Virus record (IMG/VR): IMGVR_UViG_3300045988_079407
Source: a virus
Taxonomy: Duplodnaviria > Heunggongvirae > Uroviricota > Caudoviricetes
DNA length: 32,423 nt
Reading direction: 5' to 3' (one strand)
Under the pieces are notes generated by a model. It saw nothing but the letters and a program-made list of their open reading frames with translations, ran no database searches and was not told the origin of the DNA. Below, in pieces: positions 19,715 through 24,635 of the stretch. A program made the position numbers and the translations under genes. Position 1 is the first letter of the stretch. Every line of letters starts with the position of its first letter.

Positions 19715-20001
19715 GCACGGGGACGAGGACGCTTGACACCGGCAACGCGGGCACGACCTTCTGCCACATCCTGACCTCGGGAGGTCAGCGTTACGACATA
19801 AAAGCCGCGCAGGTTTTCCACGGTGACCAGTTGCTGCTCTGCCAGCCAGTCAATCTGGCCGCGAACCACATCGCGGGAAACGTTGTGTCCGTATGCATCC
19901 AGACAGTCCTGAAGGATGGATTCGTTTGCTTCGTTATTGCAGTCCATCAGGGAACGCAGGATGACCAGACGACGGTCTTCGGTCAGAATATCGTTAATCA
20001 T
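19711..20001 (-). CDS. Mu gp26-like protein (96 aa)
   Basis: ORF in the track, coupled by ATGA-type overlaps on both sides. Confidence 0.5.
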   Translation of the reverse strand: MINDILTEDRRLVILRSLMDCNNEANESILQDCLDAYGHNVSRDVVRGQIDWLAEQQLVTVENLRGFYVVTLTSRGQDVAEGRARVAGVKRPRPRA

Positions 20002-20315
20002 GAATTACTCCGGTTTACTGCGTTTTCAAGCAGCAGCTCCAGTTGATGGGAAAATGACTGCACCCGCTGGGACAGCACCCGGATATCGCCGGACAGCTCT
20101 GCAATTCGCAGGCGCATTTCGTGTACATCTTCTGTGCCAGGGATGCTGGCGTAGCGGGTTTCCATTTCGGTCATCCGGTTTTCAAGACGCTCCACACGCT
20201 CGGTGCTGGCAAAACTACGACGCATCGCCCAGACGGCCCCACCGGCCACAACAGGCAACAGGTAAGGCCATAACGCTAAAACTGAAATCAAATCCATTAT
20301 TCTGCTCCACGGCAC
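19998..20315 (-). CDS. Membrane protein with N-terminal transmembrane segment (105 aa, Mu gp25-like)
   Basis: N-terminus LISVLALWPYLLPVVAGGAVWAM is hydrophobic, followed by a coiled-coil-like region; sits after the lysis genes. Confidence 0.5.
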   Translation of the reverse strand: MPWSRIMDLISVLALWPYLLPVVAGGAVWAMRRSFASTERVERLENRMTEMETRYASIPGTEDVHEMRLRIAELSGDIRVLSQRVQSFSHQLELLLENAVNRSNS

Positions 20316-20789: not shown

Positions 20790-21036
20790 GATGTTCTGTC
20801 TCATCTGCCAGCCGTGCGGCACGATTTGCGGCACGGATAGCGGAAAATACCTGCATCGTCTGTTCCTGACCGTGTAACAACCATTCAGCAGTGTGGCGGG
20901 CCTGTTGCTCCGTCTGTAATTCACGGCGCAGCGTCTGGTTATCGTGGCGGGTGCTGTCCAGCCTGTGCCACAACACCCCGGACAGAACGGCGGTAAACAC
21001 GGCTGCCATCAGTAAACTTTTACTGGCGAAGGTCAT
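20650..21036 (-). CDS. Inner-membrane spanin (i-spanin, 128 aa)
   Basis: N-terminal transmembrane helix (LLMAAVFTAVLSGVLW) followed by a charged helical periplasmic domain; immediately after the endolysin gene. Confidence 0.6.
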   Translation of the reverse strand: MTFASKSLLMAAVFTAVLSGVLWHRLDSTRHDNQTLRRELQTEQQARHTAEWLLHGQEQTMQVFSAIRAANRAARLADETEHHDAKEKITTAITGDNCSTRPVPAVAADRLRELEKRTRAIGGDPARN

Positions 21037-21538
21037 CCGCCCCCCTGATATTCCAGATTGCCATTTCCACTTCGCGACGGTTCATCAGTCCTTTCCATTT
21101 ATGGCCTGCGGCAAACACCCAGCGGGCCATCTGGTCACGCGCTCCGGCGTAATCACCGGCATTGAGTTTTTTCAGCAGCGTTGATTTACTGAATGCGGTA
21201 ACACCGGTGTTGAAAATAAACGTTGCCAGCGCCGTTTTCTGATATGGCGTCAGCGGCACCCTGACAAGACGATCGATTGCCGCATAAACCGGTTTTAAAT
21301 CACTGTCGAGGAGAGCCATACACTCCGCATGGCTGTAACGGCGCATTTCGATATCCGGCCCGGTATGTCCCACACAGACCGTAAGCACACCGGCAATATC
21401 GCGGTAAGGCATATAAGCGATATTTTCCAGGTGGATCAGAGACTGACGGGTCATTTCCTGATAACCACCCACACCGCCACCGGCAATCGTTGCCGCCAGC
21501 AGTGCGGCTTTCAGTTTTTTTGGTATCCCCGCCATCAT
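21020..21538 (-). CDS. lys: SAR endolysin (lysozyme-like, 172 aa)
   Basis: N-terminal signal-anchor-release-like segment KLKAALLAATIAGGGVGGY followed by a lysozyme-like domain; first gene after C, as in Mu. Confidence 0.8.
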   Translation of the reverse strand: MMAGIPKKLKAALLAATIAGGGVGGYQEMTRQSLIHLENIAYMPYRDIAGVLTVCVGHTGPDIEMRRYSHAECMALLDSDLKPVYAAIDRLVRVPLTPYQKTALATFIFNTGVTAFSKSTLLKKLNAGDYAGARDQMARWVFAAGHKWKGLMNRREVEMAIWNIRGADDLRQ

Positions 21539-21609
21539 GCTTCCCTGAAAAAATGCTCTGATGGCAGTCTAAAAAATCAGATGGCAGGTGCGGGATTATG
21601 GTGACAGGA

Positions 21610-21634
21610 AATAACCGGCAGGATGCCGGTTATT
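21610..21634 (-). terminator. Hairpin (11-bp perfect stem, 3-nt loop) overlapping the C stop codon; candidate terminator of the middle transcript
   Basis: aataaccggca-gga-tgccggttatt; the C stop (21630..21632) lies inside the 3' arm. It lies upstream of the expected C-dependent lys promoter at 21539..21629. Confidence 0.5.
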
Positions 21635-22052
21635 TCTGGCTTTCAGGTGAGAACAGATCAGGCTGATGACGTCGTGTATGCAGCTTTCTCTGGCTGGCAA
21701 TAATCTGGTAGATCTGCGGCTGGGACAGGCGATACTGGCGACGCAGTTCTTCCATGTTACGACCATTGAACTGGCAGTAAAGCAAATCGTCGCGTAACGC
21801 GGTCAGGATCGTATCGCCGCAGGGGATGTAAAACTGCCGTCCACCCAGAAAACAGGACAGGGCAACGGCCTGTTTACGGGCAAGCTCACGGGGATTGCTG
21901 ACGTTCTGGCGTTTCAGTTCGTTTTCCAGAACATCAATCAGATCAACCACCGAACGGGGCCAGCGTGATTCCAGTTCCGGGGCCGGGATGTTATCAATAT
22001 GTCCGATTAACTGGCGAATTGCCGGATCGTGTTCAAATAAATCATGCTGCAT
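21630..22052 (-). CDS. C: Late transcription activator C (140 aa)
   Basis: 140 aa; Mor/C family with a C-terminal HTH-like region (RRQYRLSQPQIYQIIA); located just before lys. Confidence 0.85.
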   Translation of the reverse strand: MQHDLFEHDPAIRQLIGHIDNIPAPELESRWPRSVVDLIDVLENELKRQNVSNPRELARKQAVALSCFLGGRQFYIPCGDTILTALRDDLLYCQFNGRNMEELRRQYRLSQPQIYQIIASQRKLHTRRHQPDLFSPESQK

Positions 22053-22164
22053 ATTTTCCCCCGGTTAACAGACAGAAAGATACACCACTGCACTGATGGT
22101 TATCAGAACCACAGGGGCAATCACTTTTATCGCACTAATCAGCGTGGACGGCCCGAAACATTCA

Positions 22165-22395
22165 TCACTGAATTTTCTGTACATGGTATTTTTCTCTGTA
22201 GCGCCGGCAATGGTGGATAATTTCTGGCATATCAACGGACTGCCAGCCTTTCATGTAATAACTTCCGTGGGTGCCATCGTGCCCTGTGTAATCCATTGGC
22301 TTTGGTGGCGGGCCTCCGGCCTCCCGATGTAATACCTCCTGTCGTAAACGTTCACGCCTGCCGAACTGAAAGGACGCATCCCACCCTTTACCCAT
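22165..22395 (-). CDS. Hypothetical protein (76 aa from the ATG at 22395)
   Basis: The ATG overlaps the GH108 stop; weak call because its 3' end overlaps the 39-aa ORF at 22065..22184 by 20 nt. Confidence 0.3.
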   Translation of the reverse strand: MGKGWDASFQFGRRERLRQEVLHREAGGPPPKPMDYTGHDGTHGSYYMKGWQSVDMPEIIHHCRRYREKYHVQKIQ

Positions 22396-22948
22396 GCAGA
22401 ACCTCCCGACAGGCGCTGGCGAGCAGATCCAGACGGTTAAACCAGCCATTCAGATATTTCCCCTGCGAGGCACTGGATTTGATAATCCCTGCGTAATAGC
22501 GGGAACGACGCAGGAAGCACTGCAACAGCAGCCAGTCAGTATCGGCACGCAGAACGGCTGCGCGTGTGTTTTTACCGACGATGCCATCATCATCAACACC
22601 TGCTGCCGCCTGGAGGATCTGAATCGCGCGTTTAACACCGTGCTGAACGGCAGCATCAAAAACGAATAAGGAAACGCCATCAGGCCATTCGTTACACTTT
22701 GCCGCCAGCCAGTAATCACGCCAGTAGATCTGCGCCGCCTGCTCGCGGGTTAAATCCTTAATGCGGGTATCAGGTTTTCCGTCACCGTTAACATCGGTTT
22801 TGCCATCAATAACACCGTCGCGACGGTCAGAAATACCGTATTTCGTTTCGCCGCCACGGTCGGCAGGATCATTAACATAGCCACCTTCAACATCAGGGCG
22901 TATAACGAAATTCAGCGAATGAAGGAATGCAGGGGAAAACTCAGGCAT
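22388..22948 (-). CDS. Glycoside hydrolase family 108-like muramidase with C-terminal peptidoglycan-binding domain (186 aa)
   Basis: N-terminal signature VEGGYVNDPADRGGETKYGIS (EGGY ... D.GG.T.YGI), followed by a region resembling PG_binding_3; AGGAGGG Shine-Dalgarno upstream. Confidence 0.75.
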   Translation of the reverse strand: MPEFSPAFLHSLNFVIRPDVEGGYVNDPADRGGETKYGISDRRDGVIDGKTDVNGDGKPDTRIKDLTREQAAQIYWRDYWLAAKCNEWPDGVSLFVFDAAVQHGVKRAIQILQAAAGVDDDGIVGKNTRAAVLRADTDWLLLQCFLRRSRYYAGIIKSSASQGKYLNGWFNRLDLLASACREVLHG

Positions 22949-23000
22949 GTTGCCCTCCTGTCATGAACGTTTTATCGTCACAACAGAATATTGAGGGCGT

Positions 23001-23030
23001 AAAAAAAGCCGGATTAACCGGCTTTACTGT
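23001..23030 (-). terminator. Intrinsic terminator right after mor (early transcript terminator, t9.2-like)
   Basis: 8-bp stem aaagccgg / ccggcttt with loop attaa; on the minus strand it is followed by a run of seven U. It lies about 9.3 kb from the left end. Confidence 0.65.
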
Positions 23031-23420
23031 TTAAAACAAAGGGGGGGAATACTGACGATACTTTATACGCCGCATTCGTCGGATGGCTTTATAGACTGTG
23101 TTAAATGTCACACCATGACGGATTGCCAGTTCGTGAACATTGCGACCGTTGAAATCATTCCAGATACGCAAATCCCGAATCAGCGAATCCAGAACCTGAC
23201 CGCGTGGAATGTAGACCTGACCGCCGCCCAGATGCTTACAGATAGCCACAACAATCTCCAGTGAATGGGCCGGATCAACACCTAACCGGGACAATTCCCC
23301 GCGCAGTAAATCGTTCAGCTCCGCCAGCAGTGCCGGAAAGCGTGACGCATCCTCTGCGGGATTGTCAAGATGTGCCAGGATGGTGTCATCCTGCAAATCA
23401 CCAAATAAATCTTCCGTCAT
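23031..23420 (-). CDS. mor: Middle operon regulator Mor (129 aa)
   Basis: 129 aa, Mor/C family; last gene of the early operon, just upstream of the terminator. Confidence 0.85.
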   Translation of the reverse strand: MTEDLFGDLQDDTILAHLDNPAEDASRFPALLAELNDLLRGELSRLGVDPAHSLEIVVAICKHLGGGQVYIPRGQVLDSLIRDLRIWNDFNGRNVHELAIRHGVTFNTVYKAIRRMRRIKYRQYSPPLF

Positions 23421-23968
23421 TGTGCCATCCTCCGTGTCTTTCTGGCATGGGCATAAGCCGCCGTCATGGCATCATAGCCGCGCAGTTCACGACCGGACGG
23501 ACTGACCGGCAATGGAAGCCCGTGACGGGAAAAGGCTTCACGAATACAGCGGATGTGCCACTGCTTGAGTGTTTCGAGGACTGTCAGCAGCGTGTCGCCA
23601 TGACACCACGCCAGTGTGGAAACGCCCTGTCCGCCGTTGCGTTTCGCGGTCAGGCGCTGAACATATTTATCCAGCGCCACATCACCGCCATCGGTAATAA
23701 AACCGTCTTCTGCCATCTGCTGCCAGATTTTATACACCTTCTCGCGGGGTGTGACATGTTCCTTAAAGCGGCGACGGGGGTATTTATTCAGCTTCTTAAA
23801 GCCGCGTTCTTTCATGGCATCGAGCACCTGTTCCAGTTGCGTAACCGTAAGCTCGCGGCAACTGATTTTGCCCGTTTTCTGCATCAGAAAAGCGCGGTAA
23901 GTGTCGTCGTCGAGTTGTAGCTCCCGACGGGCGACATGGATTAATTTAATCAGGGATGTGCGACTCAT
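23417..23968 (-). CDS. gemA: GemA-like protein (Mu gp16-like, 183 aa)
   Basis: ATG at 23968 (MSRTSLIKLIHVARREL) with a GGAGG Shine-Dalgarno 7 nt upstream; overlaps the mor start by 4 nt. The 264-aa track ORF is an upstream extension. Confidence 0.75.
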   Translation of the reverse strand: MSRTSLIKLIHVARRELQLDDDTYRAFLMQKTGKISCRELTVTQLEQVLDAMKERGFKKLNKYPRRRFKEHVTPREKVYKIWQQMAEDGFITDGGDVALDKYVQRLTAKRNGGQGVSTLAWCHGDTLLTVLETLKQWHIRCIREAFSRHGLPLPVSPSGRELRGYDAMTAAYAHARKTRRMAQ

Positions 23969-24037
23969 GATCGTACCTCCGGAAAGAGGCGGTGCTGCAA
24001 CACCGCCATATTCAGTAATAACATAAAAGGAAATATT

Positions 24038-24397
24038 ATGGCTGAACAAGAACAACATACAGTGTCGGATGATGAACAAAACCCAGATTTCGAAACAAAC
24101 CAGAAAGACACCCCTGTTAATAACCAGGATAAATTCTTTGGTATAACCGGTTTTATGCTGGTCGGTAATCTGATGATTAAGCTGATTGAAAACGGTGTTA
24201 TCAACATGCACGATGCTTATGACATCATCAGAAATACACAGGCCAGCTATAAGAACCGAAAAACGTTCGAAGAACTGGATTTTGAGGCCGATGAGTATGT
24301 TGATCTGCTGCTCAATAAGCTCTGGGCTTCAAGGCAGGATATTGTTAATGCCGGGAACCTCTCATCAGAGCACACAGATACTGACGCTGTGGAATAA
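24038..24397 (+). CDS. Hypothetical acidic protein (119 aa), opposite strand to the early operon; candidate moron
   Basis: ATG at 24038 with AAAGGA 7-8 nt upstream; strongly acidic with one hydrophobic stretch (FFGITGFMLVGNLMIKLI); about 40% G+C by hand count over the first 60 nt. The only plus-strand ORF here that does not overlap a confident minus-strand gene over most of its length. Confidence 0.5.
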   Translation: MAEQEQHTVSDDEQNPDFETNQKDTPVNNQDKFFGITGFMLVGNLMIKLIENGVINMHDAYDIIRNTQASYKNRKTFEELDFEADEYVDLLLNKLWASRQDIVNAGNLSSEHTDTDAVE

Positions 24398-24635
24398 CCG
24401 CTGAATCATCAACGCCAAGCTCACGACAAACAATATTGTTGTGGGCTTTTTTGTTATGCAACAAAACTTCGTCGCGTATGAGATGAATTTCCCGTGTCAT
24501 AATTTCAAGGGCCTCTCTCGCAGAAAAGCCTTTACTGATTGCAGTCTCAATAACATCGCGCATACGCTCAAGCATCTTAGCTTTCACCAGTTCTTCATCC
24601 AGGTCTTTAGGCGTAAATTTAGTTTCATTATTCAT
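24345..24635 (-). CDS. Hypothetical early protein (96 aa from the ATG at 24635)
   Basis: ATG (MNNETKF) with an AAGGTG Shine-Dalgarno; the upstream stop sits 2 nt away; helical charged protein. Its 3' end overlaps the plus-strand ORF by 53 nt. Confidence 0.5.
   Translation of the reverse strand: MNNETKFTPKDLDEELVKAKMLERMRDVIETAISKGFSAREALEIMTREIHLIRDEVLLHNKKAHNNIVCRELGVDDSAVIPQRQYLCALMRGSRH

Follow-up and report, generated by a model that had tools for sequence, protein, structure and literature searches.

A GH108 muramidase gene in the middle operon of a Mu-type transposable phage, a probable retained cytoplasmic endolysin

The viral DNA of IMG/VR record IMGVR_UViG_3300045988_079407 (Caudoviricetes; 32,423 nucleotides (nt), hereafter the window) encodes a predicted N-acetylmuramidase of the family GH108, 186 amino acids (aa) long, at 22388..22948 on the minus strand, in the middle operon of a Mu-type transposable phage. 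This enzyme is read, with a probability of about 0.6, as a retained ancestral cytoplasmic endolysin that is transcribed from the middle promoter Pm and would serve as a second lysis enzyme beside the late signal-anchor-release (SAR) endolysin. Confidence is high for the identities and the evolutionary placement of the genes, and moderate to low for the mode of action of the GH108 enzyme. The window is a Muvirus: a 1.85-kilobase query (21600-23450) matches the Yersinia phages vB_YpM_5 and vB_YpM_6 over its full length with 99.1% identity, whereas in Mu, D108 and SfMu the flanks alone match (coverage 57-68%). The phage map is written on the minus strand, from the c repressor through A, B, gam, gemA and mor to the tail genes, and all genes of the studied region lie on this strand.

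Domain search of the 186-aa protein showed the presence of Glyco_hydro_108 (PF05838; E 9.3e-25, 87.4 bits against a cut-off of 21.2) at residues 20-104 and PG_binding_3 (PF09374; E 6.8e-14, 52.3 bits against a cut-off of 24.6) at residues 107-173; the profile PHROG 315 'endolysin' was matched at 1.4e-51. Sequence matches in the PDB included NMB1012 (1.4e-20) and SagA of Brucella (7DNP, 2.1e-17), as well as Sen1395 and TtsA. The AlphaFold2 (AF2) model of the protein (pLDDT 82.5, pTM 0.84, low confidence in the flap region) was placed by Foldseek next to the same enzymes, with a TM-score of 0.71/0.75 to SagA 7DNP and E 5.8e-6 to NMB1012 (2IKB), and also superposes on Sen1395 and TtsA. The predicted triad Glu21/Asp30/Thr35 aligns with Glu17/Asp26/Thr31, the Glu-Asp-Thr triad described for SagA (PMC8334348); a triad of this kind is also described for TtsA (PMC6996933). 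The three residues are invariant across 34 GH108 homologues, as are 50-odd further positions. It is classed as a GH108 N-acetylmuramidase of the active type, with PG_binding_3 at the C-terminus and a predicted catalytic activity.

The solved GH108 muramidases, namely, NMB1012 of Neisseria (2IKB), SagA of Brucella (7DNP), and TtsA and Sen1395 of Salmonella (6V40/6V3Z), resemble the window protein in being all-helical and built of two domains, in carrying the Glu-Asp-Thr triad on a flexible flap, and in having a peptidoglycan-binding helix bundle at the C-terminus. Identity in structure-based alignments is 21-32%, and an acidic loop at residues 41-60 is additional in the window protein. The cellular task of SagA and TtsA lies with secretion systems, in cells that stay alive, and not with phage lysis as proposed here. 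Enzymes of the TtsA type can show specificity for wall material with LD-crosslinks. The nearest NCBIfam model is 'holin-associated N-acetylmuramidase' (NF040573); membership in this TtsA-type equivalog was rejected at 71.2 bits against a cut-off of 240, the protein being related to it and not a member.

The acidic insert DRRDGVIDGKTDVNGDGKPD occupies residues 41-60 of the catalytic flap (22769-22828, minus strand) and has a DxNxDG pattern resembling a calcium loop. It is almost invariant in the 34 enterobacterial homologues and not present in the enzymes of Vibrio and Shewanella, NMB1012 and SagA. The AF2 confidence for these residues is poor (pLDDT 54-60).

A hydropathy scan of the protein revealed no signal peptide, SAR or membrane segment: no 19-residue window reaches 1.6, the maximum being 0.93, and the N-terminus MPEFSPAFLHSLNFVIRPDVEGG is without the weakly hydrophobic signal-anchor-release stretch. 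Without a hydrophobic segment the protein would be neither secreted nor a SAR protein, and with no export signal it would be made in the cytoplasm. Signal peptides are likewise absent from NMB1012, SagA, TtsA and Sen1395.

The operon position of GH108 is given by its surroundings. Upstream lies mor, the gene of the middle-promoter activator (23031..23420, minus strand; Pfam Mor E 5.9e-30; 92% aa identity to Mu Mor), followed by a Pm-like region at 22963..23030 (minus strand), which is nearly identical to the annotated Pm of Mu (AF083977 9163-9233) up to about the transcript start and would act as the middle promoter. A dyad in this region, AAAGCCGGTTAATCCGGCTTT at 23005-23025, is found again ahead of GH108 in E. 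coli PSS-15 and Klebsiella Kp4866-3. The Shine-Dalgarno sequence AGGAGG was read at 22954..22959 (minus strand), 5 nt 5' of the GH108 start codon ATG. Downstream, on the same strand, are a homologue of Mu gene 18 (22165..22395, 76 aa), a homologue of Mu gene 20 (22065..22184, 39 aa) and C, encoding the late-gene activator and closing the middle operon (21630..22052; Pfam Mor E 8.2e-33; 98% identity to Mu C). Behind C lies the gene of the late GH24 SAR endolysin, a homologue of Mu gp22 (21020..21538, minus strand), which is syntenic with Mu_22 'SAR endolysin'.

From the near-identity to the mapped Pm region of Mu, we infer that GH108 is the first gene behind the Mor-dependent Pm and that the SAR lysozyme is expressed behind C. 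A terminator scan from GH108 to C detected no convincing terminator; with the order Pm-GH108-gp18-gp20-C, the Pm transcript that reaches the essential gene C would therefore also carry GH108. The stop of GH108 is overlapped 8 nt by the start of the 76-aa open reading frame (ORF) (ATGGGTAA), and the two genes are predicted to be translationally coupled. The perfect dyad and the following T-run within Pm are annotated as a predicted terminator in the Mu record, and are retained upstream of GH108 even in distant sister phages, despite diverged flanking sequence.

A sequence-only reading of this stretch, made without database searches, had given correct coordinates and sequences for these genes and had proposed a GH108 enzyme with a peptidoglycan-binding C-terminus, located in the middle operon apart from a late SAR endolysin. 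The domain search and the comparison with the Mu Pm region agree with it, and the two muralytic activities it had predicted correspond to GH108 and the GH24 enzyme (Phage_lysozyme E 1e-37).

The distribution of GH108 was surveyed in 80 IMG/VR viral contigs encoding a gp18 relative, a redundant sample ranked by similarity to the query, with genes typed by tblastn. The order Mor-GH108-gp18-multi-transmembrane protein-(protein of ~200 aa)-TraR-DUF2730, without C and without GH24 lysozyme, was found in 57 loci, including three truncated by the contig end and one in which GH108 was undetected. The window type, Mor-GH108-gp18-gp20-C-Lys, was found in seven loci, and the same order with gp19 ahead of gp20 in three; the Mu type and the SfMu type, both without GH108, are represented by eight and five loci. 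GH108 stands directly upstream of gp18 in 66 of the 80 loci.

The arrangement of Mor, Pm dyad, GH108 and gp18 is the common one in a large sister group of transposable phages of E. coli, Klebsiella, Vibrio and Shewanella. The nearest GH108 relatives beyond vB_YpM_5 and vB_YpM_6 occupy the same map position in transposable phages (Klebsiella Kp4866-3, 72% identity; Mu-like phages of Vibrio and Shewanella, 43%), and hundreds of GH108 proteins of enterobacterial prophages show 64-74% identity, some of them named 'Mu phage endolysin Lys'. Among complete E. coli genomes, window-type GH108 was found in 8 of 5426, with or without gene 19 (SE11, PEC422, elppa5 and FDAARGOS_1059 among them), the sister type (PSS-15) in four, and the gp20 segment in 41.

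The most economical reading of these gene orders is that Mor-Pm-GH108-gp18 is the ancestral arrangement, and that GH108 is a retained gene and not a foreign addition. The identities of the window proteins to those of Klebsiella Kp4866-3 are 52% for GemA, 63% for Mor, 72% for GH108 and 69% for gp18; to those of Shewanella they are 37, 32, 43 and 40%, respectively. GH108 and gp18 accordingly diverge in step with GemA and Mor, as would be expected if the block were inherited vertically. The Mu lineage would have exchanged the membrane genes of the sister cassette for [gp19]-gp20-C-Plys-SAR lysozyme-spanins; Mu, D108 and SfMu would later have lost GH108 and kept gp18 only, and loss of GH108 in Mu appears a better account than gain. 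GH108 is kept in the window, in vB_YpM_5 and vB_YpM_6, and in prophages of E. coli SE11, elppa5 and FDAARGOS_1059.

Substitution patterns suggest that the retained gene is still used. Between the window and SE11, GH108 differs by 24 synonymous and 2 nonsynonymous changes, the ratio of nonsynonymous to synonymous rates (dN/dS) being about 0.02; between the window and elppa5 the numbers are 14 and 0. No examined copy has a damaged ORF, an altered triad or a degraded consensus ribosome-binding site, and the late lysozyme is already present in the lineages compared. To judge by sequence, strong purifying selection acts on GH108, which argues that it does something that matters.

The lysis background of this enzyme is that of Mu. 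Holin candidates of Mu were assayed for lethality triggered by dinitrophenol (DNP), and gp19, gp20, both, or all candidates together gave none; the conclusion of the authors was that Mu is holin-less and that its SAR endolysin is released by the DUF2730 'releasin' gp25 (PMC9239132). Earlier genetics cited there had found gp19 and gp20 dispensable for lysis. In the same work DUF2730 was reported to co-occur with cytoplasmic endolysins in Mu-like phages, and the endolysins paired with it are diverse (PMC9239132). In the window the homologue of gp25 is encoded at 19997..20297 (minus strand; Pfam DUF2730 E 2.5e-13; 100% identity over the compared part of Mu gp25).

Under the proposed mode of action, GH108 would be transcribed from Pm as the first middle gene, translated efficiently and accumulated in the cytoplasm from the middle phase on. 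Alone it could not reach the wall. Most likely it would act as an auxiliary endolysin once the late pathway of SAR lysozyme, releasin and spanins has breached the envelope; release by a route involving DUF2730 and/or gp18 is less likely. Set beside the canonical holin-endolysin cassette, GH108 is a soluble enzyme, as in that cassette, and a search for homologues of the holin-like and multi-pass proteins of the sister group and of gp19 gave no holin gene in the window; by position the GH108 gene has Pm on one side and C on the other, ahead of the late promoter region, and is not behind a late promoter as that of a canonical endolysin is. Two-component holin/endolysin lysis, including that of the endolysin of the Rhodobacter capsulatus gene transfer agent (GTA) with its holin of three transmembrane helices (PF11351), also uses a soluble muramidase that needs a membrane lesion, as is proposed for GH108 here. 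It differs in that no holin candidate is left in the window and that GH108 is a middle and not a late gene.

In the sister group the place of a holin may be taken by the protein of ~200 aa, nine of ten members of which match PF11351 GTA_holin_3TM at E <= 0.05 (best E 5e-4), below the Pfam gathering score. No homologue of this holin-like protein, of the multi-transmembrane protein or of gp19 was found in the window. Homology of Mu gp19 to the multi-pass protein of the sister group was not supported (BLASTP E 0.037 and 0.41), the two sharing a position.

Several points weigh against the reading of GH108 as a retained auxiliary endolysin. For a cytoplasmic endolysin that has no holin, any route to the wall is hypothetical, and the role of GH108 is read from sequence and a predicted structure. 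The Mu leader was searched for a scar left by deletion of GH108; the local alignment score was reached by 349 of 1000 shuffles, which leaves parsimony and parallel divergence as the grounds for a loss in Mu. A 290-nt stretch is 83% identical to an E. coli prophage of type A (the sister type), which indicates recombination among GH108 alleles, and a gain of GH108 by recombination is possible. The redundancy and similarity ranking of the 80 contigs and the sub-threshold score of the GTA-holin assignment count on the same side.

Of the other explanations, the one that fares best assigns GH108 and the gp18-like protein to a self-sufficient unit, in which gp18 would be an inhibitor, chaperone or export adaptor, possibly acting with the DUF2730 releasin and without a classical holin. 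The 76-aa ORF matches phrog_2121 (E 1.6e-37) and is 83% identical to Mu gp18; its AF2 model, a soluble protein of three helices (pLDDT 84.8), has no structural relatives that were found. Between the window and Mu, dS of gp18 is saturated and dN is 0.08, and other pairs give dN/dS of 0.02-0.1. The 76-aa ORF is a homologue of Mu gp18 and clearly coding, and its substitution pattern points to strong purifying selection.

A paired function draws on the adjacency in 66 of 80 loci across Enterobacterales, Vibrio and Shewanella, the stop/start overlap in the window, the purifying selection on both genes and the association of DUF2730 with cytoplasmic endolysins in Mu-like phages (PMC9239132); TtsA, a related enzyme without a signal, works with a holin still to be identified (PMC13284979). 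The adjacency, however, could be plain vertical synteny, and Mu, D108 and SfMu have kept gp18 without having GH108, so that the function of gp18 is not exclusively linked to the enzyme. The self-sufficient unit is therefore held to be doubtful. Similarly speculative is the wider proposal that the Mu middle operon is the stump of an older GH108 lysis cassette, in which gp18 controls or escorts the signal-less GH108 and the enzyme takes a route other than a holin, for example, the DUF2730 releasin. If true, a single phage would have two kinds of endolysin release.

The gp18 family is tiny: an exhaustive profile search of 1.84 billion proteins yielded 17 cluster representatives, mostly of 71-109 aa. 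All database homologues of the gp18-like protein (P0001-P0012) carry a precomputed assignment to Pfam PF26867, and a curated Pfam family for Mu gp18 thus apparently exists; our own Pfam scan, run with a copy of the database without PF26867, assigned no family. A fusion of gp18 to a holin-like protein, suggested by the 284-position profile phrog_2121, was not confirmed, the family being mostly of 71-109 aa. The single family member of 205 aa (P0136) consists of gp18 residues 1-31 frame-shifted into an ORF with several transmembrane segments and is probably an indel artefact. In Kp4866-3 (L006 4649-5188), a second open frame overlaps the gp18-like gene in its 3' half and runs into the gene of the multi-pass membrane protein. 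The open overlapping frame of Kp4866-3 and P0136 may be either an indel artefact in a GC-rich stretch of proline codons or a frameshift product.

GH108 could also be a decaying or neutral leftover of an older lysis cassette, all the work being done by the SAR lysozyme pathway. Mu, D108 and SfMu do well without GH108, the presumptive holin-type partners are gone from the window, and only 8 of about 41 complete E. coli genomes with a Mu-type prophage have the gene. This explanation is unlikely, as it is opposed by the intact ORF of every examined copy, the invariance of the triad and 50-odd other positions, the conserved ribosome-binding site, and the ratio of 24 synonymous to 2 nonsynonymous changes between two lineages that both have the SAR lysozyme.

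In a third explanation, the 39-aa membrane peptide is a holin-like or antiholin-like partner that lets GH108 cross the inner membrane; the holin-like role had also been suggested in the sequence-only reading. The peptide, MYRKFSDECFGPSTLISAIKVIAPVVLITISAVVYLSVC, has one hydrophobic segment, its best 19-residue Kyte-Doolittle window being residues 21-39 with a mean of 2.48, and the single transmembrane helix that had been noticed is consistent with this. It is identical to Mu gp20 at 37 of 39 positions and matches phrog_19823 (E 2.1e-28). Apart from its helix, the proposal is favoured by the operon that gp20 shares with a signal-less muramidase, encoded two genes ahead of it, and by an earlier bioinformatic suggestion, cited in PMC9239132, that Mu gp19 and gp20 form a holin/antiholin pair.

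The locus survey argues otherwise. The gp20 gene is present in 23 of 23 loci with C, 10 with GH108 and 13 without it, and in none of the 57 sister-type loci, in which GH108 is the sole endolysin; gp20 therefore travels with C and not with GH108. Moreover, the near-identical Mu gp20 gave no DNP-triggered lethality (PMC9239132), gp20 is weakly constrained relative to the SE11 type (pN 0.34, pS 0.57), and the helix of the window copy contains a unique proline. A role of gp20 as the holin of GH108 is thus very improbable, and gp20 is instead a small non-essential membrane peptide inherited with C.

The proline in question, Pro24 (IAPVV; codon 22113-22115, minus strand), lies inside the transmembrane helix and is potentially helix-disturbing. 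Mu, SfMu, vB_YpM_5 and other close copies in the examined viral loci have Leu at this position.

The 39-aa ORF was unlisted in the ORF list on which the earlier reading was based; in public records it is annotated, as gp20 in Mu (AF083977) and SfMu_20 in SfMu. Gene callers reported the gp20 protein cluster (P0147) on at least 1000 contigs in a protein search made with a 41-aa extension of the 39-aa query. The family has lengths of 39-41 aa, its position immediately upstream of C is kept in all C-containing loci, and 22 of the 23 viral loci have an undamaged ORF. A 41-aa gp20 at the same place in the SE11-type prophage keeps, at a DNA identity of only 61%, the N-terminal motif MYR(K/R)FSxEC-G--TL and the hydrophobic tail. 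Within the Mu group the DNA is near-identical, and the one synonymous and two nonsynonymous changes are too few for dN/dS. The gp20 gene is real, on evidence that is weaker than for gp18 but positive.

The 39-aa and 76-aa ORFs overlap by exactly 20 nt, as had been stated, and the same overlap is annotated in SfMu. The conclusion that only one of the two ORF models could be correct does not follow, since both genes are conserved: gp18 has dN 0.08 and gp20 is kept in the SE11 type. In Mu, gene 19, encoding a four-pass membrane protein, lies between genes 18 and 20, and it is missing from the window, vB_YpM_5, SfMu and some E. coli prophages. Where gene 19 is missing, gene 18 is left without its stop codon and reads on for five extra codons (VQKIQ) into gene 20. 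The presence/absence polymorphism of gene 19 thus explains the overlap, which makes neither ORF call wrong, and none of the three ORFs, namely, GH108, gp18 and gp20, is a chance ORF, as all have conserved homologues.

Some phages carry virion-associated wall hydrolases, and GH108 appears from its position to be expressed earlier than and apart from the lysis genes. A role other than host lysis, such as packaging for DNA entry, action on neighbouring cells or superinfection exclusion, is nevertheless the least probable explanation, given that GH108 is a free-standing enzyme of 186 aa with no fusion to a tail or head protein, lies outside the structural modules, has close relatives that all occupy the endolysin slot of a lysis cassette (some annotated as endolysin or 'Mu phage endolysin Lys'), and has a holin-associated muramidase as its nearest NCBIfam model.

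Comparison with the middle operon of Mu (Pm-gp18-gp19-gp20-C; AF083977) showed that mor, the Pm dyad and C are shared with the window at 92-98% aa identity, as are the late lysis genes for the SAR lysozyme, spanins and DUF2730 releasin. The window has an extra GH108 gene of 561 nt between Pm and gene 18 and, like SfMu, no four-pass gene 19. The GH108-type transposable phages, namely, the E. coli PSS-15 prophage, Klebsiella Kp4866-3, Shewanella vB_SspM_MuM16-2 and Vibrio 1.028.O, share with the window the order Mor-dyad-GH108-gp18-like, with GH108 identities of 72-74% for the enterobacterial and 43% for the Vibrio and Shewanella members, and DUF2730 lies further downstream in both. They differ from the window in having neither C nor GH24 lysozyme; their gp18-like gene is followed by genes of the GTA-holin-like protein of ~200 aa and TraR, both missing in the window, and the enterobacterial members have a multi-pass membrane protein ahead of the holin-like one, which is missing as well.

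On the plus strand, antisense to the early operon and just upstream of gemA, an acidic ORF of 119 aa (24038-24397) was found, with no match in Pfam or NCBIfam. Relatives have other reverse-strand genes in this slot, a 267-nt gene in SfMu and vB_YpM_5 and a DUF2513 gene in SE11, and it looks like a variable cargo position. An Rfam scan of 21000-24500 for structured RNA gave nothing at E <= 0.1.

GH108 as an enzyme family, gp18 and gp20 are already known, and so is the range of different endolysins that accompany DUF2730 in Mu-like phages (PMC9239132). The enzyme is not mentioned in the paper describing the vB_YpM phages (PMC10434027). In the literature, no paper was found that links GH108 to the Mu middle operon, reports true Mu relatives with a second, signal-less endolysin in that operon, or describes a GH108-gp18 pairing or the derivation of the Mu middle operon from a lysis cassette.

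The practical value of the finding is modest, as the enzyme family and the small genes were known, and its relevance is for specialists in phage lysis. Phage Mu is the reference case for holin-free lysis, and its genes 18, 19 and 20 have been without an assigned role for decades. The window points to a possible source of gene 18 and of the position of the operon, which looks like the front end of the GH108 lysis cassette still in use in most related transposable phages. Some true Mu relatives appear to keep a cytoplasmic muramidase under strong selection despite lysing with a SAR lysozyme and releasin. The role of a signal-less endolysin in a holin-free phage, and its route to the wall, is a question that can be tested in the culturable phages vB_YpM_5 and vB_YpM_6 and in inducible E. 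coli prophages.

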